DNA from: an uncultured archaeon
GTDB taxonomy: Archaea; Asgardarchaeota; Lokiarchaeia; Sigyniarchaeales; SOKP01
Direction of reading: 5' to 3'
DNA length: 64,000 nt
Assembly (NCBI GenBank): GCA_964493715.1
Contig: CAZBPC010000011.1
Location: 880 to 64,879 of the forward strand
Made by a program: the position numbers and the translations under genes. Shown here piece after piece: positions 4,129 to 61,659 of the stretch (position 1 is its first letter; each line of letters begins with the position of its first letter). The notes below the pieces were generated by a model. It did not search any database and was not told the origin of the DNA. It was given only the letters and a program-made list of their open reading frames with translations.

Positions 4129-6540
4129 TTAAACATCCTTACCTTTTTTCTTGAATTTAAAATAGAGAACTTTATCTAAAATCTTACCAATTTTAATAGA
4201 AATTCTTTTCGCGATCTCAAATCTTTCCCCATCTACCATTGATTTCATTTCTTCAAGAGAAGGATCATGCTTTAATCTTTCATTTAAGACATCTTTAATA
4301 ATTTGAGATACATCCTCATTCATTTTTTCATCGATGGGAAGTTTAAAATTTGATTCTAATTTTTTTATTAAATCAATTGATTCTTTGTAAAATTCGAAGA
4401 ATTTACTCAATGGATTTTGATCAGACTCACTATGAATTTTAATACTTTCTGATAATATTTTTGTATCTTTCTCTTGCCAATAAAATTGATTCGGGTTGAT
4501 TCCAGGACGATTAACACCCATAAGTGCTGAAGTAATGCGACGTTCAATCCAATTAAAGGTACTTTCCTCCTGCTTTTCTCGAATGACCCTTCTCTTCTCT
4601 TGTTTTTCTTTTTCTACATTTTCAATGCCTTCTATAACTCTTGATTTCCCTTTTTCATTAAATTTTTCAAATCGTTTGACTAAATCATAAGCTATGCAAT
4701 ATGAAACGGGAGAGACGAGATCTGCTTTCAATGATAACGAGGCAACATCGCTAAAAATATTACTTGGCTGAGTTTTTAGCTCTGACATACTTTCTTTTAA
4801 TGATCTATTTTGCAAGAGTGATAAAATAAATCCATTAACAAGAAAAACTTGATTTTTTGCATTCAATACGATAACTAACTCCTCTTGACGTTTCATCAAT
4901 CGATTGATAATCAATTCCTCGAATTTAATATTCACCCATTCCTCAGATTCTAAAGTACCTTCAATTTTTGTTAACGCTAAAAGGAATAGACCTTTGTCAT
5001 TAGTTACCTTGTCATATAACTCAATGATACGACAATATTGCCGGAGGATTTTAGATAAGATGTGTAAATAAATATCTTTAACAATATTATTTAAAAATTC
5101 ATTAAAATTTAGAATTAAAATAATTTGTGAATAATTTGAAAGGTTAAGTTCATGAAAAAACACTTTATCTATAATCTGCTTTTTTCTTACGAATTCTCTT
5201 AAATCATTGATTGTAAAACCAAGTTTTTCTTCTAAGAGATTCCAAAATTTTTGAAGAGCGATCTCATCTCGATATATTAAATTAATTACATTAACGTCTG
5301 ATAAATTATTAATTGAACCTATAATACTCTCAAGAAAAGGATACTTTAGATCACAAAGAAGTCTATTAGTTTGATAAAGCAAATTCTTTTCAGGATCATT
5401 CAAGAGAAGTAAATCTTGTTCTTGGATATTATAGCGAATCATGTTTATTTTTACCTTTTCGATAACCTCTTCATTGACATTAACGATTTTTAGTATATCA
5501 TCAATACCTCTCATATTTAGAGAGAAAATGATCTCATCAAAATTTGATTCTTTTAGACTTTGAAGTAAATATATGAAATCATTAGGATTATTCCTAAGTT
5601 GCTTAAATAATTTAGATTTTAAGAATGAAAGAATTTTATTTTCAAAACTATCATAATCTATTTTTTGTGCCAAGCTTTTGTGAAACGTATTTACTAAATT
5701 TTCTTTTATCATATTTCCTTCAATAAAAATTTTTAAAGCATTAATAGACACGGGAAATTTCTCAGATTCATATTCCACTATTTTTCGTTTAATCATTCTT
5801 ACGGGCATTGTTTGAACTTGAAGTTCTTTATATGACTTAAATTCATATTTTCGTTTAATTCTCGAAATTAGTCTATCTAATGTAGATAATTCAATGAAAT
5901 TATCTTGTTTTTCTTCCATTTCTAATTTTTTTTCCAAATCACTCGAGAGATCTTTAAAAGCAGAACTTTCTTTTAATATCTCATATTTTATTTCATCAAC
6001 TAATCCAATTAAATCTCCAATAAAGTCATAAAAATAAAAAGGAGGATAATTTGTGACAATATCTAATAGGAGTTGTTCTATTTCTGCATCAAGGTTTTTC
6101 TTTTGTCGCTCTTTTTCAATATCTGATAAATCTGAAATTCTTTCATTTATCAAGACATTCAAAAAGGAATTTTCTAACTTTATAATCTTATGAATCAGGT
6201 CGATCTCAAGATTGAAAGAATTTTTTAATAGGATTTCGAACTCTGATAGTAATAACTTCTTTTGTTGATCTTCATAATGACTCGCAGTTTCATAAGCAAA
6301 TTTATTATATTGTTTTGTTTCAAGCACTCGAATACCCATATCATGATAAAGATGTATAGAGGCAGTAGCTAATAATAATGAATTAAAGGTGCCATCTTTT
6401 TGATTTAACTTCATTATCAAATTCTTGTCTTGTTCCCGTTTAAAATGTGAAAGTATCCTAGTCATCGTCTGAAAGTGCCTATAAGTACCTTCTATAGCGG
6501 TGGTTTTTCTCTTTATCCCACTTATTCTTCTATCAACCAT
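4129..6540 (-). CDS. large orphan protein (803 aa), mostly helical, no recognised domain
   Basis: Long uninterrupted ORF whose start overlaps the upstream gene's stop by 19 nt. K/E/L/I-rich helical composition. No P-loop or metal-binding motif seen. Confidence 0.7.
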   Translation of the reverse strand: MVDRRISGIKRKTTAIEGTYRHFQTMTRILSHFKREQDKNLIMKLNQKDGTFNSLLLATASIHLYHDMGIRVLETKQYNKFAYETASHYEDQQKKLLLSEFEILLKNSFNLEIDLIHKIIKLENSFLNVLINERISDLSDIEKERQKKNLDAEIEQLLLDIVTNYPPFYFYDFIGDLIGLVDEIKYEILKESSAFKDLSSDLEKKLEMEEKQDNFIELSTLDRLISRIKRKYEFKSYKELQVQTMPVRMIKRKIVEYESEKFPVSINALKIFIEGNMIKENLVNTFHKSLAQKIDYDSFENKILSFLKSKLFKQLRNNPNDFIYLLQSLKESNFDEIIFSLNMRGIDDILKIVNVNEEVIEKVKINMIRYNIQEQDLLLLNDPEKNLLYQTNRLLCDLKYPFLESIIGSINNLSDVNVINLIYRDEIALQKFWNLLEEKLGFTINDLREFVRKKQIIDKVFFHELNLSNYSQIILILNFNEFLNNIVKDIYLHILSKILRQYCRIIELYDKVTNDKGLFLLALTKIEGTLESEEWVNIKFEELIINRLMKRQEELVIVLNAKNQVFLVNGFILSLLQNRSLKESMSELKTQPSNIFSDVASLSLKADLVSPVSYCIAYDLVKRFEKFNEKGKSRVIEGIENVEKEKQEKRRVIREKQEESTFNWIERRITSALMGVNRPGINPNQFYWQEKDTKILSESIKIHSESDQNPLSKFFEFYKESIDLIKKLESNFKLPIDEKMNEDVSQIIKDVLNERLKHDPSLEEMKSMVDGERFEIAKRISIKIGKILDKVLYFKFKKKGKDV

Positions 6541-8825
6541 GCTCTATAAACCTCTTTAAAATTATCTGAAATTTCGAATAAAGACTTATTCCCCCAATAT
6601 TTGAAATTAAGGACATGATATAATTCTCTTTGAAACAACTCTCTTTCATTATCCGTAAGTATTTGATTTAATATTATAGATACTGGACGAGGAATCAATT
6701 TTGAAAAGTATTTTAAATTCACATCTTCAATATAATTATAAAAATTTTCTTGTTCAGTCAATTTAAGAAATTTTATTGGTATTAATTCCTCTTCGTTCAT
6801 ATTTAATATACTGAGTTCGGTTTCTATTTTTTTTCGGACATATATGGGAAATTCAGTAGCAATTCCTCTACAATATTCAAACTGTTTATAAAACTCTAGA
6901 AATAGACTGTGGTTCTGATCATTAGAAACATTAGCAATATATCGATCTAAGAATTTAATAAAGTAATCAATTTGTTGTTCACGTGATTCTCTTTCTTCTA
7001 AATAACTAATAAAGTCTGAGACAATTTCATTTAAGGTCCAAATTCGCTGTTCCTCTACCTTAAAAAAAAGTTTTGCGTAATCTATTATCCATTCTAATAT
7101 ATAATATTTCCAGGCTAGATTGATTCCACCTATACGTTTTTCTAGAAATCGATGGAACTTATTAGAAAATGTGACTGGATCGCTGATTTTATTTTTAGAT
7201 TCTTCTTTTAAAAAACGATTAATAGTACTATAACGTAAAATATAGCTTAGTAGAAATTCTAATTCAGAGGAATACGTTTTAAGATTTTCAACATATTCCT
7301 TTATTGGGTCTAATACCTTCATTTGAATTTCTGCAAAAGAAATTATATCACTAATGTTCAATTGTGCTTTTTCAAAAAATGATGGAATACTTTGTTTTAA
7401 GATTTTTTTAAATTCTCTAACTAAAATTTCCTCATCATAATGAGATCCCTTAGTAAAATGGATGGTACATAGTTCAATTTGATTAAATAAAAACTCTTGA
7501 AATTTAATTAGAATATTATTTCCTATAGATTTGGCAGGTTCTTGCTCATGGGTAAATTTATCTTTTAAATGAGATATAAGATTTAAAATGAATGTCTTTA
7601 ATCTCCTTCGAGCTAAATATTGAGGCAAACTCTCTCTTAATATCTTAAAGCTTGCTTTCACAATTTCTGAAAAGATAGATACTGAGGAATTTAAATCATT
7701 AGCTCGAAGTTTTTCGGAATTATGTATTGATTGCGTTATAGATTGGTTAGCAATTATAAATATTTCATCATAAATCTTTTCAGTTCTTCCAAATTCTTTA
7801 TGGATAAAATCTCCGTATATTTTTAATAACTCTTGTAAATTACCTGATTCTCCAGAAAGTAGAAAGGTTTTAGAATTTTCTAAAAATTGGTTAAAAGATG
7901 ACTCGAAAATCTTTAAATCTTTTTCAAATTCATCAATCACCCACTTTACGGTATGATTCTCGTTAACCTGTTCAATTCGTGCATTAATTCGATCTATAAT
8001 AAAAGAAATTACACTTTCTTTAGATTCATCGATCGTTCCCGCATTAGCCAAATTTAATAAATTCGATCCAAATTGTAGTGTTTTTTCAACAATGTAGTTT
8101 GCACTAGGTTCAGAAATTCCATATTTTAAATGTTCTTTTGAAGCATGTTCATCAAGAGGATCACTTAGTTTTTGAAAAGAAGGATTTGAAAAAATAATTT
8201 CAATTGGTTTTTTATTCCAATTATAATTTACATCTGATTTAATTGAGGCGAACGTGTTTAACATTTCTTTTTCAGTGGGCAAAGATAAACTAACTCCAAT
8301 AAGTTTTTTATTCCACTTATTTTCGAGTAAATCACCATATAATTTTTTACTAAATCTAGATGCAAAATTTCGTAGTACCAATGCTTTTTGGCTTTTATTT
8401 ATGCCGGGATGATCTGTGAATTCTTCTACCTCAAAAAATAATTTGCTTACATTATTAACCGAATCTCGAGATTTGTGAGTGTTTAAATATCCAGTTTCTG
8501 GTTTCAGTGCAAGAAGCAGGCTTTCACAATCTTTAAACTTACCAGGAATCAATAACATTGATTTTGGGAAGATTTTTAGCGATGATTCTTTTTCATCATA
8601 ATTATATAATTCAAATTCAATACTAAATAGTTCCGAACCTGTAAAATCTCTCAAAATTGCATTATACATTCTTAAATATGCGATGATCTCTTGAGATAAT
8701 TGATTCATTTTACTTCTAGTTAATTTACCCGGCCCGATAACATCTCCAACAACAATATCATCTGGAGAGGAATAACCAAATATTAGAGAAAATTGATAAT
8801 TAATTGATTCTCGTGTGGTAATCAT
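6522..8825 (-). CDS. large orphan protein (767 aa), no recognised domain
   Basis: Long uninterrupted ORF, first gene of a two-gene unit. The N-terminal ~200 aa look mixed alpha/beta and the rest looks helical. GPGKL is not a true Walker A motif. Confidence 0.7.
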   Translation of the reverse strand: MITTRESINYQFSLIFGYSSPDDIVVGDVIGPGKLTRSKMNQLSQEIIAYLRMYNAILRDFTGSELFSIEFELYNYDEKESSLKIFPKSMLLIPGKFKDCESLLLALKPETGYLNTHKSRDSVNNVSKLFFEVEEFTDHPGINKSQKALVLRNFASRFSKKLYGDLLENKWNKKLIGVSLSLPTEKEMLNTFASIKSDVNYNWNKKPIEIIFSNPSFQKLSDPLDEHASKEHLKYGISEPSANYIVEKTLQFGSNLLNLANAGTIDESKESVISFIIDRINARIEQVNENHTVKWVIDEFEKDLKIFESSFNQFLENSKTFLLSGESGNLQELLKIYGDFIHKEFGRTEKIYDEIFIIANQSITQSIHNSEKLRANDLNSSVSIFSEIVKASFKILRESLPQYLARRRLKTFILNLISHLKDKFTHEQEPAKSIGNNILIKFQEFLFNQIELCTIHFTKGSHYDEEILVREFKKILKQSIPSFFEKAQLNISDIISFAEIQMKVLDPIKEYVENLKTYSSELEFLLSYILRYSTINRFLKEESKNKISDPVTFSNKFHRFLEKRIGGINLAWKYYILEWIIDYAKLFFKVEEQRIWTLNEIVSDFISYLEERESREQQIDYFIKFLDRYIANVSNDQNHSLFLEFYKQFEYCRGIATEFPIYVRKKIETELSILNMNEEELIPIKFLKLTEQENFYNYIEDVNLKYFSKLIPRPVSIILNQILTDNERELFQRELYHVLNFKYWGNKSLFEISDNFKEVYRAWLIEE

Positions 8826-9088
8826 TATTAAATCCTTCTTATTACTAGTTTAGATTAATGGTTTTAGGCTTTAACCAATTAAAAAATTTAAATATCTTAT
8901 AGTTGATAAAGTATTAAAATTTAAGCAGAGCCATAACAGATTATATTTTTTTAGAAGTATCTAATCAAAATTTGTTTTTTTACAATATATAAAAATAAAA
9001 ACATAAAAGAGATTATTTTTATAATAAATTATAATAAGCAATTTTCGCATATTATAAGATTTAAAAAAATTGCTAATAGGTGTTATAA

Positions 9089-9493
9089 GTGGAATTCGGT
9101 TCGGATCTCGGAATCACGAGTAGTGACATTGAGAGAATTAGCCCTCAAATCACATTTATTACTTCAAACGCGGACATAGAGGCTATCGCACTCGTGTCAA
9201 AGGAGGGTTATCAGATTGCATTCTCTGCTTTACCACAATACCATGTTGACGGCGATCAATTTTGTGGATTGGCCTCAGCCTTATTAATGACGGGAAGCTC
9301 AACGATTCAAACGTTATTTCAAGAAGATTTAAGTGAAATAATAGTAAGAGCAGAAAACGGTTATATAATTGTGAGTAATGCGGGACGTTTAGTAATCGTT
9401 TGTGCAGGGACTGTAATCGAAACCCTTATGAAGACGGTTAAAGTCATGCGAATAGCGGCGAAAAATTTGAATAAAATTTTCGAAGGTCGCTAA
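9089..9493 (+). CDS. Roadblock/LC7 (MglB-like) domain protein
   Basis: 134 aa with the Roadblock pattern: IEAIALVSKEGYQIA...DQFCGLASALLMTGSSTIQTLFQEDLSEIIVRAENGYIIVSNAG.LVIVCAG. GTG start. Confidence 0.7.
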   Translation: MEFGSDLGITSSDIERISPQITFITSNADIEAIALVSKEGYQIAFSALPQYHVDGDQFCGLASALLMTGSSTIQTLFQEDLSEIIVRAENGYIIVSNAGRLVIVCAGTVIETLMKTVKVMRIAAKNLNKIFEGR

Positions 9494-9586
9494 TATTCAC
9501 TTCATTTAGTTTCATATCTAATTATTTTTAATTACTATTCAGATTTTATTGATGTTCAAAACATTAAATTTATAAGTTAATTCGAG

Positions 9587-9600
9587 TTTTTTATTTAATA
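9587..9600 (+). promoter_or_regulatory. TATA-like box positioned for a transcript starting at about 9620
   Basis: The ttttttatttaata element is centred about 27 nt upstream of the ATG at 9622. This spacing is compatible with a leaderless transcript of the Trp-rich small ORF. Confidence 0.3.
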
Positions 9601-9621
9601 TTCTTAATATGGATTTAAATC

Positions 9622-9675
9622 ATGCTTACTGAGAAAATGACTTTTTGGCGTTGGCAGTGGCAGTGGCGTTCATGA
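9622..9675 (+). CDS. putative Trp-rich leader peptide (17 aa, MLTEKMTFWRWQWQWRS) upstream of trpB2
   Basis: Direct translation: atg ctt act gag aaa atg act ttt tgg cgt tgg cag tgg cag tgg cgt tca tga. Four TGG codons fall within eight consecutive codons. It lies 157 nt upstream of the trpB2 start. Confidence 0.45.
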   Translation: MLTEKMTFWRWQWQWRS

Positions 9676-9681
9676 TAACGC
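9666..9681 (+). promoter_or_regulatory. small hairpin spanning the leader-ORF stop codon
   Basis: GCGTT (9666-9670) pairs with AACGC (9677-9681) around the 6-nt loop CATGAT, which contains the TGA stop. A second GCGTT at 9648-9652 could pair alternatively. T-rich tracts follow (ctcttt, cttttctttc, tattttt). Confidence 0.3.
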
Positions 9682-9831
9682 TCTTTCATCGGTTTAAATC
9701 ATATTAATAAACAAGCTTACTTTTCTTTCAATTTAGTTATTAATTGCCTTAGCAGTTATGCATTATATTTTTGAATTCCATTGATATAAGGAGACATAAA
9801 CCTATAATTAAAATGTGAAGGATATCTAAAA

Positions 9832-11232
9832 ATGAGTAAAATAAATGCACGAATTTTATTAGAACCAAATGAAGTCCCAAAAGAATGGGTAAATATTTTA
9901 CCAGATTTACCCTTACCCATAACACCATTAATAAATCCAATGGATGGAATGCCAGCACCTCCAGAACTAGCCTTTGCTATATTTCCCAAGGAATGTGTAA
10001 TGCAAGAAGTATCAAAAGAAAGAATGATACCCATTCCGAAAGAATTAAGAGAAATTTATGCACAAACTTACCGCCCAACACCTCTCCATCGTGCTTATGG
10101 ATTAGAAAAGGATTTGGGAATTGAAGGCGATGATATTAAAATTTTTTATAAGAATGAATCAGTTTCCACAACAGGGTCTCATAAACCTAATACTGCTTTA
10201 GCACAAGCATATTATGCAAAAAAAGAGGGGTTAAAGGAATTGGTCACTGAAACAGGAGCAGGACAATGGGGTTCAGCACTCTCTTATGGTTGCAATTTAT
10301 TTGGGTTGAAATGTGTGGTCTATATGGTAAGAGCAAGTTACATTCAGAAACCAGGGAGAAAAATACTAATGAAAGCTTATAATGGCGAAGTACACGCAAG
10401 CCCATCGAAATATACGATGTCTGGTAGAATGTTTTATGACAAGAACCCAGAACACCCGGGAAGCTTAGGAATTGCAATTTCAGAGGCTGTAGAACATAGT
10501 TTAACAAGAGATGATGCAAGATACTCCTTAGGTAGTGTACTTAATTTTGTATGTTTGCATCAAACAATAATAGGTCAAGAAACAAAGATTCAACTAAATA
10601 AAGTTGGAATTTCAGAACCAGATATAATAATTGGATGCATGGGTGGTGGTTCAAACTTCAGTGGACTTGCGCTTCCATTTATGAGAGATAAATTGGAAGG
10701 GAACCTCCCAAATACTCAATTTATTGGAGTAGAACCTAGAGCTTGTCCAAGTGTGACCAAAGGAGAATATAGATGGGATTATGGAGATACCGCAAAAAAA
10801 GCGCCTATTCTTAAAATGCATACTTTAGGGCACGGTTTCATTCCTCATCCAATACATGCCGGAGGATTAAGATATCATGGAATTGCTCCCATTATCTCAA
10901 ACCTAATCAATAACAAGCTTATGACATCTTCAATGCATTTTCAAACTGAAGTTATAGAGGCAGGGCTTCAATTTGCTAGAACTGAGGGAATTCTTCCCGC
11001 TCCAGAAACGTGTCACGCAGTGAAAGAAACTATAGATCAAGCTATATTAGCAAAAGAGAATAATGAAAAGAAAGTTATTGTTTTTAACTTCAGCGGTCAT
11101 GGATATTTTGATCTTTTAGCTTATAAGGAATATATGGAGGGAAATTTAGTAGACTTCGAATTGCCTTCTGAAGAAATTTCTGGAGCTTTGAATTCTTCAG
11201 ATATGCCAATAATTGATGAATCAAAATTTTAA
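9832..11232 (+). CDS. trpB2: TrpB2-type tryptophan synthase beta-like PLP enzyme
   Basis: PLP-lysine region TTGSHKPNTALAQAYYAKKEG, GGGSNFSG loop, and the long N-terminal extension typical of TrpB2. No other trp genes are nearby. Confidence 0.9.
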   Translation: MSKINARILLEPNEVPKEWVNILPDLPLPITPLINPMDGMPAPPELAFAIFPKECVMQEVSKERMIPIPKELREIYAQTYRPTPLHRAYGLEKDLGIEGDDIKIFYKNESVSTTGSHKPNTALAQAYYAKKEGLKELVTETGAGQWGSALSYGCNLFGLKCVVYMVRASYIQKPGRKILMKAYNGEVHASPSKYTMSGRMFYDKNPEHPGSLGIAISEAVEHSLTRDDARYSLGSVLNFVCLHQTIIGQETKIQLNKVGISEPDIIIGCMGGGSNFSGLALPFMRDKLEGNLPNTQFIGVEPRACPSVTKGEYRWDYGDTAKKAPILKMHTLGHGFIPHPIHAGGLRYHGIAPIISNLINNKLMTSSMHFQTEVIEAGLQFARTEGILPAPETCHAVKETIDQAILAKENNEKKVIVFNFSGHGYFDLLAYKEYMEGNLVDFELPSEEISGALNSSDMPIIDESKF

Positions 11233-11316
11233 TCTTTTTTTTTTATTCAATCAGTAAAAATCTTAAAGTTGAAATTATAAATTCTATATTATATAATATA
11301 TTGAGATAGCTTTTCT

Positions 11317-12399
11317 TTGAATCTTTTGTCTTTAGTTATCATTTGTATTTTTTATTTTTATTGCGCTATATTGTTTTATATTACAATATTATCAAGAAGA
11401 AAAAGAGAAACTAGTGCATTTATTAATAATCTCTGTAATTCTATAGTCTTAATTTTTAGTATTACAATCAGTTTAATTCTTATTCAAACATTAAAAGTAT
11501 CTAAAATTAATTTTATCGTTTTCCCATTCGATATATTCATCATTTCTTTTATAATAGGTTATTTACCCATATTATATTTTTTTATTCATAGGGAAAAAAA
11601 AAGAATCAAGAATCAGGATGATTCTTGGAAACGTTATTATATTGTATACACCCCAGAATTACCTTTAAAATATGACATTTATCGCAAATTAACTCATTTA
11701 GTTGTATTAGCTATAGTGTTTTTTTATTTTACACTTGGGTTTTTGGTTCAAACCGTATTTTCTTATATCCTTAATTTCTTACCCCCAATAATTTCTAATT
11801 TATTTTTTTCCCTATACAATTTAGAAGGGGACAAAATGATATTTACACAATATTTAGTAGTTTTTTTAGTTGGAATTTCTCTTATAGGTTTAATTTCGGT
11901 CGATTTGATACGAATTGTCAGGCCAGATTACTACCCTTTAAAACCTGTAAATTTAATTCTCAGAGAAAAGGAGATCCAGACGAGAATTGGTCCTCATATC
12001 TCAATGGGAATTGGATGTTTTTCAATTATAATAATATATGGATTATTTCAACCAATTGGACCGCTAGTAATATGTACCTCTATGACCATGTCAATATTTG
12101 GAGATATGGCTTCAAATTTATTCGGTAGAATGATGGGACGTAGATTTATTAGAAAAACAAATAAAACTTATGAAGGTTTGATTGCAGGAATGATCAGTGG
12201 TTTTGTATCAGGAATGATCTGCTTGGTTTTATTAAATGAGTTTTATCATATCTCTTATTTTGGATTGTTTATCCTTTCTTCGGTTGGAGCTTTTATTATC
12301 GGGGGATTAGATTTTCTTAATTTAGAAATTGATGATAACCTCTCATATAATGTAATTATAACACCTGTATTATTCTTTCTTTCACTCCTTCTTATATAA
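11317..12399 (+). CDS. polytopic membrane protein, dolichol/polyprenol kinase-like (CTP-transferase 1 superfamily)
   Basis: Many TM segments. The C-terminal motif FGDMASNLFGRMMGRRFIRKTNKTYEGLIAGMISGF resembles the GD..A...G...G......KS.EG signature of dolichol/phytol kinases. Confidence 0.5.
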   Translation: MNLLSLVIICIFYFYCAILFYITILSRRKRETSAFINNLCNSIVLIFSITISLILIQTLKVSKINFIVFPFDIFIISFIIGYLPILYFFIHREKKRIKNQDDSWKRYYIVYTPELPLKYDIYRKLTHLVVLAIVFFYFTLGFLVQTVFSYILNFLPPIISNLFFSLYNLEGDKMIFTQYLVVFLVGISLIGLISVDLIRIVRPDYYPLKPVNLILREKEIQTRIGPHISMGIGCFSIIIIYGLFQPIGPLVICTSMTMSIFGDMASNLFGRMMGRRFIRKTNKTYEGLIAGMISGFVSGMICLVLLNEFYHISYFGLFILSSVGAFIIGGLDFLNLEIDDNLSYNVIITPVLFFLSLLLI

Positions 12400-12425
12400 T
12401 TATTAATAGTAATAACAAAAATTTT

Positions 12426-12959
12426 ATGAATAAGGATAGTTTAATAAATAGAAATATGTCAGAAGATAAATTAAGGATTGATAAAATAAAGAAAGGAACA
12501 GTAATTGATCATATCACTGGGGGATATGCTCTAACTATTCTAAATCTTACTGGATTAGATGAATCTCCAAATCTCATGACAATCGGTATCAATGTTTCTT
12601 CAAATAAATTCCAAAAGAAAGATATCATTAAAATTGAAGGGGTATTTCTAAATGAGACACAAATGCAACAAATATCCATTCTTTCTCCAAACAATTCTAT
12701 ATCATTGATTGAGAACTATAAAGTTATTGAAAAGAAAAAAGTGAAAATTCCTAAAGTAATCAAAAAATTAGTTTTATGTGCAAATAAAACTTGTATTTCT
12801 AATTCAGATGAACCTATTGATTCTGAATTCAGCGTGTTGGAAGAGAAACCCTTGAAAATCCAATGTGTATACTGTAATCGGATGTATAAATTAGATGAAA
12901 TAACATTCAGTTCAAAAGGTAAAACGGAAAAGAGAGTAAAGCAAAGAATAATATTATAG
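12426..12959 (+). CDS. pyrI: aspartate carbamoyltransferase regulatory subunit
   Basis: LRIDKIKKGTVIDHI..G.ALTILNL at the N-terminus. C-terminal Zn domain CANKTCISN...CVYCNRMY (four Cys). Confidence 0.85.
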   Translation: MNKDSLINRNMSEDKLRIDKIKKGTVIDHITGGYALTILNLTGLDESPNLMTIGINVSSNKFQKKDIIKIEGVFLNETQMQQISILSPNNSISLIENYKVIEKKKVKIPKVIKKLVLCANKTCISNSDEPIDSEFSVLEEKPLKIQCVYCNRMYKLDEITFSSKGKTEKRVKQRIIL

Positions 12960-61552: not shown

Positions 61553-61659
61553 TGCTTCCGCCGGGATTCGAACCCGGGTCACGAGGGTGAGAACCTCGCA
61601 TGCTTAGTCTTTCCGAAAGAAGTTTAAGGATAATATTGACCGGACTACACTACGGAAGC
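61553..61659 (-). tRNA. tRNA-Glu (anticodon CUC) with a 32-nt intron at a non-canonical D-arm position
   Basis: 5' exon GCTTCCGTAGTGTAGTCCGGTCAAT (61659-61635). Intron 61634-61603. 3' exon CATGCGAGGTTCTCACCCTCGTGACCCGGGTTCGAATCCCGGCGGAAGCA (61602-61553). The spliced 75-nt product has a perfect 7-bp acceptor stem, anticodon loop TTCTCAC and a standard T-arm. The exact splice junction is ambiguous by 1-2 nt. Confidence 0.8.

Follow-up and report, generated by a model that had tools for sequence, protein, structure and literature searches.

A candidate ribosome-mediated attenuator with a Trp-codon leader upstream of trpB2 in Loki-type Asgard archaea

The stretch of DNA analysed here (64 kb of contig CAZBPC010000011.1 from an uncultured archaeon; hereafter, the window) has its closest public relatives in contigs of Promethearchaeota, that is, of Loki-type Asgard archaea. 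Upstream of trpB2, which encodes a stand-alone TrpB-like enzyme, the window carries a short leader open reading frame (ORF) with four tryptophan (Trp) codons. We consider that this region is a ribosome-mediated attenuator, which senses charged tRNA-Trp and controls trpB2; the probability of this reading is estimated at roughly 0.55. The leader is a conserved translatable ORF with Trp codons at a fixed distance from its start. It is strictly associated with trpB2, it overlaps two covarying RNA helices, P1 at its stop codon and P0 around the whole ORF, and it is followed by a run of T. A preliminary description, made from the letters of the window alone, had proposed a translation-sensing attenuator at this site. 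The comparison with relatives supports the proposal through the ORF signature, the covariation of P1 with the last codons and the T-run, but not a leaderless transcript or a classical pair of terminator and antiterminator.

The leader ORF in the window

The codons of the leader ORF are ATG CTT ACT GAG AAA ATG ACT TTT TGG CGT TGG CAG TGG CAG TGG CGT TCA TGA. The coordinates given for it, its translation (MLTEKMTFWRWQWQWRS) and the occurrence of four TGG codons within eight codons were all verified. When all six frames of the 64-kb window were scanned, this was the single site with four TGG in eight codons; about 0.07 such sites are expected from the TGG frequency. Trp accounts for 0.67% of the residues in the long ORFs of the window, and the G+C content of the window is about 29%. 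It is known that bacterial trp attenuation relies on Trp codons in the short leader of a Trp-biosynthesis gene. Since Trp is rare in the proteome and the gene downstream makes Trp, the arrangement in the window fits this logic.

Conservation of the leader

The comparative set consisted of 80 trpB2 loci, taken from a scan of one genome per species. A leader with a W-x-W-x-W(-x-W) run is present at 65 of the 73 Asgard trpB2 loci (70-95% TrpB2 identity) and absent at eight trpB2 genes of 54-55% identity from Bathyarchaeia and Thorarchaeota. The leader-bearing contigs are labelled Promethearchaeota, Hodarchaeota and Hermodarchaeota, and in them the leader stop lies 133-175 nucleotides (nt) from the trpB2 start. 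Examples of the peptides are MATVRNFCWQWPWRWR, MTLAKNLAWCWQWPWRWR, MVTEDILFCWQWPWRS, MATGNYYFWQWPWSWL and MSNLFNFAWQWRWRWI. In addition, a pattern scan of metagenomes with TGGCARTGGCCNTGGNNNTGG returned at least 120 stretches. Among the matches listed, 118 were chance occurrences, mostly in GC-rich DNA, and two contigs (L111 and L174) carry the leader, both upstream of trpB2.

The statistics of the ORF were computed on 63 distinct leader sequences. The start codon is located exactly 24 nt 5' of the first TGG in 50 of them (46 ATG and 4 GTG) and 27 or 30 nt from it in the 13 others. None of the 63 sequences has a stop in the Trp frame within the 39 nt examined, whereas the other two frames are open in 17 and 33. 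A stop codon follows one or two codons past the last in-frame TGG in 53 sequences, and TGG is retained at positions 1, 3 and 5 of the run in 63, 59 and 60 sequences, respectively. The codons between the Trp codons vary, partly synonymously (CAG/CAA, CCT/CCC/CCA/CCG, CGT/CGC/CGA), and the N-terminal part, the first eight codons, falls into at least 15 unrelated types. The peptides are 13-24 residues long and contain two to five W codons, always in frame; the gaps in the leader alignment are of 3 or 6 nt. Elsewhere in about 560 kb of related loci, read in six frames, W.W.W occurred once. The leader ORF itself was never found apart from trpB2, in the related loci or among the metagenome matches listed.

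This means that the expectation of the preliminary description was borne out: W-rich ORFs were found in the 5' regions of trpB2 in relatives, with the start, the frame, the Trp codons and the nearby stop kept and with the N-terminal and some synonymous positions varying. The same description had named a length-variable microsatellite that loses the frame or the Trp codons as an outcome that would speak against it. Such a tract was not seen, as the indels are in frame and the W codons are kept. A microsatellite or a chance ORF was rejected, because the frame is open in 63 of 63 sequences and the start codon stands at a fixed distance.

Frameshifted leaders occur in L013, L018, L029, L036, L043 and L047 (at about 2710-2850), for example MTLARNLLWCWQWPWRGDTALSLE and MFTKINLLKCWHGLWRFKTLFQR. 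They keep two to four Trp codons, and translation runs through P1 to a later stop; the nucleotides GGCGT..AACGC are kept. It should be mentioned that two of the contigs with an Asgard-type leader and a trpB2 of 76% identity bear bacterial labels: L029 (DATKTW010000128.1, "Nanopelagicaceae bacterium") and L031 (JAGMEL010000010.1, "candidate division WOR-3 bacterium"). L029 additionally has Asgard neighbour genes. Both are probably mis-binned contigs.

Helix P1 over the stop codon

A GCGTT/AACGC hairpin whose loop holds the stop codon had been noted before. It is indeed present, and in its extended form, GGCGTT/AACGCT, it is the helix P1 of Table 1. In every subgroup of the relatives, the last Trp/Arg codons are predicted to pair with the sequence just 3' of the stop, with the stop in or beside the loop. 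The arms differ among the subgroups: GGCGUU/AACGCU in the window, and GUUGGC/GCCAAC, GGUCUUG/UAAGACC, GUGGC/GCCAC and GGUGC/GCACU in others. The Trp/Arg codons thus constitute the 5' arm of P1, and the putative regulatory codons overlap one strand of a covarying helix.

Among 21 members of the largest subgroup, the 12-pair helix is 94.8% paired, compared with 18-48% for slid registers. Four pairs (11 cells of the alignment) changed on both sides, and none of 500 shuffles reached this score. Codon 14 of the leader changes from CGU to CAG or CAU, and these changes are compensated in the non-coding 3' arm. Furthermore, G.U exceeds A.C by 14 to 3, which points to P1 being formed in RNA of the + strand. 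In the arm-swap test, the energy was -9.4 kcal/mol for the native arms, -6.4 for swaps with dissimilar arms and -4.6 for shuffled arms, a modest contrast. All 5' arms of P1 share UUGGC/GGCGU, so that it is the formal count of pairs, not the arm-swap test, that carries the argument. RNAalifold recovered only three pairs of P1 from the alignment of 64 sequences. Because the sequences are AU-rich and this alignment is gappy, sub-alignments and arm-swap tests were used in place of whole-alignment folding.

The second GCGTT inside the Trp-codon run (9648-9652), for which an alternative pairing had been suggested, exists as described. The alternative pairing is limited to the W-R-W subgroups and does not hold as a general feature.

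Helix P0 and the start of the transcript

The two strands of P0 pair with each other in the minimum-free-energy fold of the window, with CAT opposite the leader ATG. In 24 sequences P0 is 82.8% paired, and slid registers reach 28-46%. Six pairs (16 cells) changed on both sides (AUGG/CCAU, UUGG/CCAA, UUCGG/GCGAA, UUUAG/CUAAA), and again the score was reached by 0 of 500 shuffles. The arm-swap test for the window gave -14.4 kcal/mol for the native duplex against -7.4 for swapped partners. The 10-bp direct repeats TTTAAATCAT reported earlier at 9614-9623 and 9693-9702 are present. Since UUUAAA is self-complementary, the two copies can pair with each other, and P0 explains the repeat.

The existence of P0 also bears on the start of transcription. 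The TATA-like stretch at 9587-9600 that had been proposed as the promoter element of a leaderless transcript is there, but its use as a TATA box would leave the 5' strand of P0 untranscribed, in conflict with the covariation of P0. The 5' box at 9604-9621 covaries with a downstream partner and must therefore be transcribed, so that a leadered and not a leaderless transcript is probable. The element shared across groups is the TTTATAA located further upstream: the window group shares the motif (A/C)TTTATAAGTT, at an unchanged distance, with L006, L025, L035, L040 and L066. From this element, transcription is predicted to start near 9596-9602. A bacterial-type scan gave a sigma-70-like match (11/12) at 9781-9808; this consensus is bacterial and irrelevant to archaeal promoters.

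The region between the leader and trpB2

At +20 to +65 past the leader stop, a run of at least five T is present in 59 of 66 sequences, compared with 13.8 ± 3.3 in shuffled spacers. Runs of at least five A in the same interval are found in only 8 of 66, and the T-run is thus strand-specific. As for the window itself, the oligo-T tracts listed by the preliminary description are present but weak, and the sole T5 (9768-9772) lies inside the conserved downstream hairpin.

Three further elements, P2, P3 and P4, follow (Table 1). P2 is part of the minimum-free-energy fold, and hairpins of differing sequence were judged by eye to occupy its position in other subgroups. P3 has the consensus GCATTAA-N4-ATTGAnTTCCAAT-N4-TAATGAnAC, with nine invariant columns, and is the most conserved sequence of the region (alignment A3; about 60 loci, e.g. 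L042:2917-2955). Pairing in P3 extends to 88% of the cells, with changes on both sides in six pairs, a score that none of 500 shuffles reached. The ratio of G.U to A.C is only 22:12, which fits either an RNA hairpin or a DNA palindrome. Within the compared sequences P3 was found only upstream of trpB2, and L009 and L067 have kept it despite the loss of the leader ORF. As an RNA hairpin, P3 could bind a protein or a ligand; as DNA, it could serve as an operator or a promoter element. A pairing of its loop (UCCA) with the UGGA box that follows P1 was rejected, because the changes in the window group, as judged by eye, are non-compensatory.

Most relatives have a strong P4 (CACAUC/GAUGUG, CACAUU/AAUGUG, UCACC/GGUGA, CAACC/GGUUG); in the window group the hairpin is weak. 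Of 54 sequences, 36 give it a z-score below -1.5. The GG(T/A) of trpB2, which resembles a Shine-Dalgarno (SD) sequence, comes after P4. RNAalifold applied to the P3-P4 block found no structure.

Table 1. Coordinates of the leader, the putative RNA helices and trpB2 in the window
Feature	Positions	Strand	Description
Promoter candidate	9566-9580	+	TATA-like AAATTTATAAGTTAA; TTTATAA at 9569-9575
TATA-like stretch of the preliminary description	9587-9600	+	TTTTTTATTTAATA; close relatives have TTTTAAAT
P0, 5' strand	9604-9624	+	box TTAATATGGATTTAAATC of the 5' untranslated region and leader ATG (full TTAATATGGATTTAAATCATG); SD-like GGA at 9611-9613
Leader ORF	9622-9675	+	17 codons; ATG at 9622, stop TGA at 9673-9675; peptide MLTEKMTFWRWQWQWRS
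Trp-codon run	9646-9666	+	TGG at 9646, 9652, 9658 and 9664 (W9, W11, W13, W15); CGT, CAG and CAG between
P1 hairpin	9665-9682	+	GGCGTT 9665-9670; loop with stop codon 9671-9676; AACGCT 9677-9682; then CTTTCAT
P0, 3' strand	9687-9707	+	CATCGGTTTAAATCATATTAA; conserved CAxxGG-TTAAAcc box; holds second TTTAAATCAT repeat
Pyrimidine/T-rich tract	9717-9734	+	core TTTTCTTT at 9721-9728; candidate termination site or 5' strand of long-range helix
P2 hairpin	9742-9757	+	AATTGC-CTTA-GCAGTT
P3 block	9760-9795	+	GCATTATATTTTTGAATTCCATTGATATAAGGAGAC; hairpin/palindrome, invariant loop TTGAnTTCC
P4 hairpin and trpB2 SD	9794-9822	+	ACAT 9794-9797 with ATGT 9813-9816; SD-like GAAGGA 9817-9822
trpB2	9832-11232	+	466 residues; stand-alone TrpB-like pyridoxal phosphate enzyme; presumed regulated gene

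Proposed mechanism

Judged from sequence comparison, Trp-tRNA would be sensed at the leader and trpB2 would be the gene controlled. The leader ORF would be translated, the ribosome would stall at the Trp codons, and P1 together with P0 would promote termination, so that the regulated step is transcription and not translation. In this mechanism, transcription would start about 20-25 nt 5' of the leader ATG, and a ribosome would load on the 17-codon leader while RNA polymerase is still transcribing it. When Trp-tRNA is ample, the ribosome would pass the four alternating Trp codons, terminate at the stop in the P1 loop and depart. After this release P1 would close, stacked on P0. P0 would also hide the leader start site, so that only the first, coupled ribosome counts. 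The polymerase might then be released at the U-rich tract 25-55 nt downstream, either by intrinsic oligo-U termination or by the archaeal factor aCPSF1/FttA, and few transcripts would reach trpB2.

When Trp-tRNA is scarce, the ribosome would dwell on W9-W15. Its footprint would cover the 5' arm of P1, and the closed structure would form too late. The polymerase would then read through into P2-P3-P4 and trpB2, and TrpB2 would make Trp from indole. In such a two-state version the ribosome itself would act as the antiterminator, and an antiterminator structure would not be needed. The mechanism as a whole is plausible. As for its wider form, a leader-peptide transcription attenuator that is widespread in Loki-type Asgard archaea, in which a ribosome stalled on alternating Trp codons decides on termination before trpB2 without a classical antiterminator and in combination with a second conserved module of RNA or DNA, P3-P4, the chances seem about even.

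Several observations weigh against the attenuator. The tract in the window is only T4CT3, with T5 in the nearest relatives, L002 and L005. In many sequences the T-run lies 15-40 nt past P1, not directly behind the hairpin, and a scan for bacterial-type terminators found none in the window. The T-rich tract can also pair with GUGAAGGA...AUGAGU, an A/G-rich stretch that includes the SD of trpB2. Because the T-run pairs equally well with this stretch before trpB2, its conservation may reflect an anti-SD helix, not termination. A conserved antiterminator of the 2:3 type, that is, a partner of the 3' arm of P1, was not found across the subgroups. The best partners shift with the subgroup, the SD region, the P3 loop and an arm of P4 being among them, and the AU-rich sequence permits many weak alternative pairings of this arm. 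A classical antiterminator was therefore rejected as a conserved feature, as no partner is conserved in position.

Further points on the same side concern P0 and the leader itself. The largest ("MATV") subgroup gives no support for P0; there, RNAalifold puts the first Trp codons opposite the start region. This helix, Pa (AUGGCAACUGU with GCAGUGGCC), is 77.6% paired, but 64-107 of 500 shuffles reached its score; it has no covariation support and was discarded. The third positions of the codons between the Trp codons are unusually conserved, which implies constraints beyond coding. A ribosome that has reached the stop codon would likewise cover P1, and discrimination would therefore rest on kinetics. 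In addition, the leader is lacking in seven loci. In L009 and L067 (2600-3000) the Trp ORF is deleted, and remnants (AACGCC-CTTTCATTGG) are kept together with P3-P4; L011, L019, L020, L027 and L056 have a short spacer of 150-177 nt with neither leader nor P3. Judged from these loci, the leader is evolutionarily dispensable.

Alternative explanations

A serious rival to termination, although an unlikely one, keeps the same sensor, a ribosome stalled on the Trp codons, and places the output in the translation or stability of the trpB2 mRNA, through a long-range helix of the pyrimidine tract past the leader with the purine-rich SD/start region of trpB2. This helix would close the P2-P3-P4 domain, and the translation state of the leader would shift it. 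The minimum-free-energy fold of the window pairs 9715-9745 with 9803-9837, including GAAGGA and the AUG, and RNAalifold, applied to the main group, places AUUUAUUUUUUCAU opposite GUGAAAAAAUGAAU. Nearly all sequences allow a duplex of the U-tract and the A-tract with -10 to -16 kcal/mol, and in the L010/L049 group the 3' arm of P4 overlaps the SD GUGGUAA. Moreover, archaeal transcription termination does not need hairpins, so that a role of P1 in termination is not obvious. The U-tract/A-tract pairing is, however, unspecific (mean of -12.2 kcal/mol for native and -11.7 for swapped partners), and helix P5, the U-tract with the A-tract/SD, was rejected on this ground although it is possible everywhere. 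In most loci, 135-175 nt separate the leader stop from the start of trpB2, and no conserved path from the position of the ribosome to the long-range helix was found. A second alternative separates the leader from trpB2 altogether. The T-run just past the ORF could be a normal gene end, AT-rich TATA-like sequences lie between the T-run and P3, and in L009 and L067 the ORF is missing although P3-P4 and trpB2 are retained. The leader might then be a gene in its own right, which encodes a Trp-rich micropeptide and ends in its own terminator, trpB2 might have its promoter between the T-run and P3, and their adjacency would reflect a shared use of Trp. This seems improbable, since the N-terminal half of the peptide is not conserved and the ORF was never found away from trpB2; furthermore, covarying helices that overlap the start and the stop of an ORF, as P0 and P1 do, are typical of regulatory leaders and not of protein genes.

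The leader peptide might act through its sequence, as an arrest peptide like TnaC. It would sense free Trp in the ribosome and stall at or near the stop, and trpB2 would be induced by high Trp. This would suit the core W-Q-W-P-W-R-W, which is conserved at the amino-acid level, the fixed start distance with W at codon 9, the stop one or two codons past the run and the Pro in the middle of the run in about half of the sequences. Nevertheless, the residues between the Trp residues change freely (Q/C/R/H, P/Q/L, R/Q/C/S/H) when the pairing of P1 is kept, between 2 and 5 W codons are present, and the frameshifted variants L013, L018 and those of the L029 group keep the Trp codons but move the stop 7-9 codons later. 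The W12-D16-P24 spacing of TnaC is absent and there is no conserved Asp. Induction of a Trp-forming enzyme by Trp would also make little physiological sense, and we regard the arrest peptide as quite improbable. The UGG/TGG repeats could instead form a binding site for a TRAP-like RNA-binding protein or a DNA-binding regulator, with the ORF being incidental. The conservation of the nucleotides of TGGCAGTGGCCTTGG reaches third codon positions, the repeats are regularly spaced, and the neighbouring P3 could be a protein site. This explanation is highly improbable, as it accounts neither for a start codon conserved in frame and at a fixed distance nor for the frame open in 63 of 63 sequences, the in-frame indels and the nearby stop; the start and frame statistics stand strongly against it. 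TRAP leaders have 9-11 (G/U)AG triplet repeats spaced by 2-3 nt and require no translation, whereas the leader here has only three to five UGG repeats with a spacing of 3 nt, and no Rfam family matches.

trpB2 and its neighbours

The gene that starts at 9832 was correctly named trpB2, as both equivalog models score above their curated cutoffs. The full-length match to NF009057 (NCBIfam) has 643.7 bits against a cutoff of 366, the match to TIGR01415 has 595.8 bits against 518.85, and Pfam PALP also matches. No further trp gene, including an adjacent trpA, was found among the scanned neighbours of trpB2. These neighbours in the window are a Roadblock/LC7 gene, upstream on the same strand, and genes for a 360-residue membrane protein and PyrI.

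The order of a 767-residue protein (- strand), Roadblock/LC7, trpB2, the 360-residue membrane protein and PyrI is kept across Loki-type genomes (6522-12959 in the window; most of L002-L072). The membrane protein gene begins about 85 nt past trpB2 and may be co-transcribed with it. The pyrI gene (12426-12959) has no pyrB before it in the window. The ORF of the 767-residue protein (6522-8825) adjoins Roadblock in relatives too, with 43-86% identity; it overlaps by 19 nt with an adjacent ORF of 803 residues on the same - strand (4129-6540). Pfam gave no hits for the 767-residue protein, the 803-residue protein or the 360-residue membrane protein.

The unit of leader, P3 and trpB2 also occurs in other surroundings, with beta-lactamase-like, flavin reductase and UxaE genes in L033 and with GH57 and hydrolase genes in L054. 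Since the unit is kept in these unrelated neighbourhoods, it is tied to trpB2, not to the genes around it.

The same contig is present in a metagenome of the Joint Genome Institute (sample 3300031699). At the far end of the window, a tRNA-Glu(CUC) at 61553-61623 (- strand) scores 30.3 bits, with an Rfam tRNA gathering score of 29 and with 71 bits for the tRNA-Arg at 2832-2906; the tRNA-Glu may be atypical.

Comparison with known systems

Leader-peptide attenuation is a textbook mechanism of bacteria. According to Blombach et al. 2021 (PMC8448881), archaea have no known mechanism of attenuation or antitermination. Our literature search found no later report of an archaeal or Asgard leader peptide, of a Trp-codon attenuator or of trpB2 regulation. 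In the whole window, Rfam gave no hit at gathering thresholds for such an element, Trp_leader and T-box included, and over 9480-9860 at E ≤ 10 it returned only two chance fragments of long non-coding RNAs.

If the attenuator is real, the prokaryotes most closely related to eukaryotes would regulate a gene through the coupling of transcription and translation. A covarying Trp-rich leader in more than 60 Asgard genomes makes regulation after initiation in archaea, and the use of ribosome-polymerase coupling for it, open to experiment. The leader also bears on the interplay of oligo-U or aCPSF1/FttA termination with translation. It suggests a Trp-starvation function, the salvage of indole, for stand-alone TrpB2 in the organisms that bear it. 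In addition, it provides a template for finding other archaeal amino-acid leaders, and the ATG, the TGG codons and the arms of P1 and P0 are clear targets for mutation.

TrpY is a DNA-binding repressor of trp genes in Methanothermobacter. The system proposed here would share with it the Trp-responsive control of archaeal trp genes. TrpY acts at promoter DNA, whereas a translatable ORF and RNA helices are conserved here, although P3 could be a protein site. TnaC, the leader of the tna operon of E. coli, is likewise a short peptide with a critical Trp and Pro and with its stop near the sensing site, and the outcome would likewise depend on whether a termination factor reaches naked RNA. It differs in that it senses free L-Trp and induces a catabolic operon; here its W12-D16-P24 spacing is not present and the gene is biosynthetic. 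The polycysteine short-ORF attenuators reported for mycobacteria (bioRxiv 10.1101/834739) are similar as tiny upstream ORFs rich in codons for one amino acid that regulate biosynthetic genes downstream and lie outside the classical proteobacterial model. They are bacterial and leaderless, whereas here the 5' untranslated region takes part in a covarying helix and the transcript is probably leadered.

In layout, the leader resembles trpL of E. coli and Salmonella (Rfam Trp_leader). In both, a short ORF stands in the 5' leader of a Trp-biosynthesis gene; it encodes about 15 residues, with the Trp codons clustered towards its end. These codons supply one strand of a helix near which the stop codon lies, a U-rich tract precedes the structural gene, and a downstream segment can sequester the ribosome-binding site of the leader. 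The host, in contrast, is archaeal, with a Pol II-like polymerase, no Rho, and termination by oligo-U or aCPSF1/FttA. There are three to five alternating Trp codons (W-x-W-x-W) in place of tandem WW. Neither a 2:3 antiterminator nor a 3:4 terminator emerged as a conserved pair, and P0 encloses the whole ORF. The gene downstream is a stand-alone trpB2 instead of a trp operon, no Rfam family matches in sequence or structure, and the leader is not a member by homology.

The two-state scheme resembles that of E. coli pyrBI, where there is likewise no dedicated antiterminator and it is the ribosome that blocks the 5' hairpin arm. pyrBI senses uridine triphosphate via polymerase pausing, whereas Trp-tRNA is the proposed signal here, and the distance from the hairpin to the U-tract is longer. 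By analogy, in a domain in which leader-peptide attenuation is so far undemonstrated, the Asgard leader would work like the bacterial trp leader or, in two-state form, like that of pyrBI.

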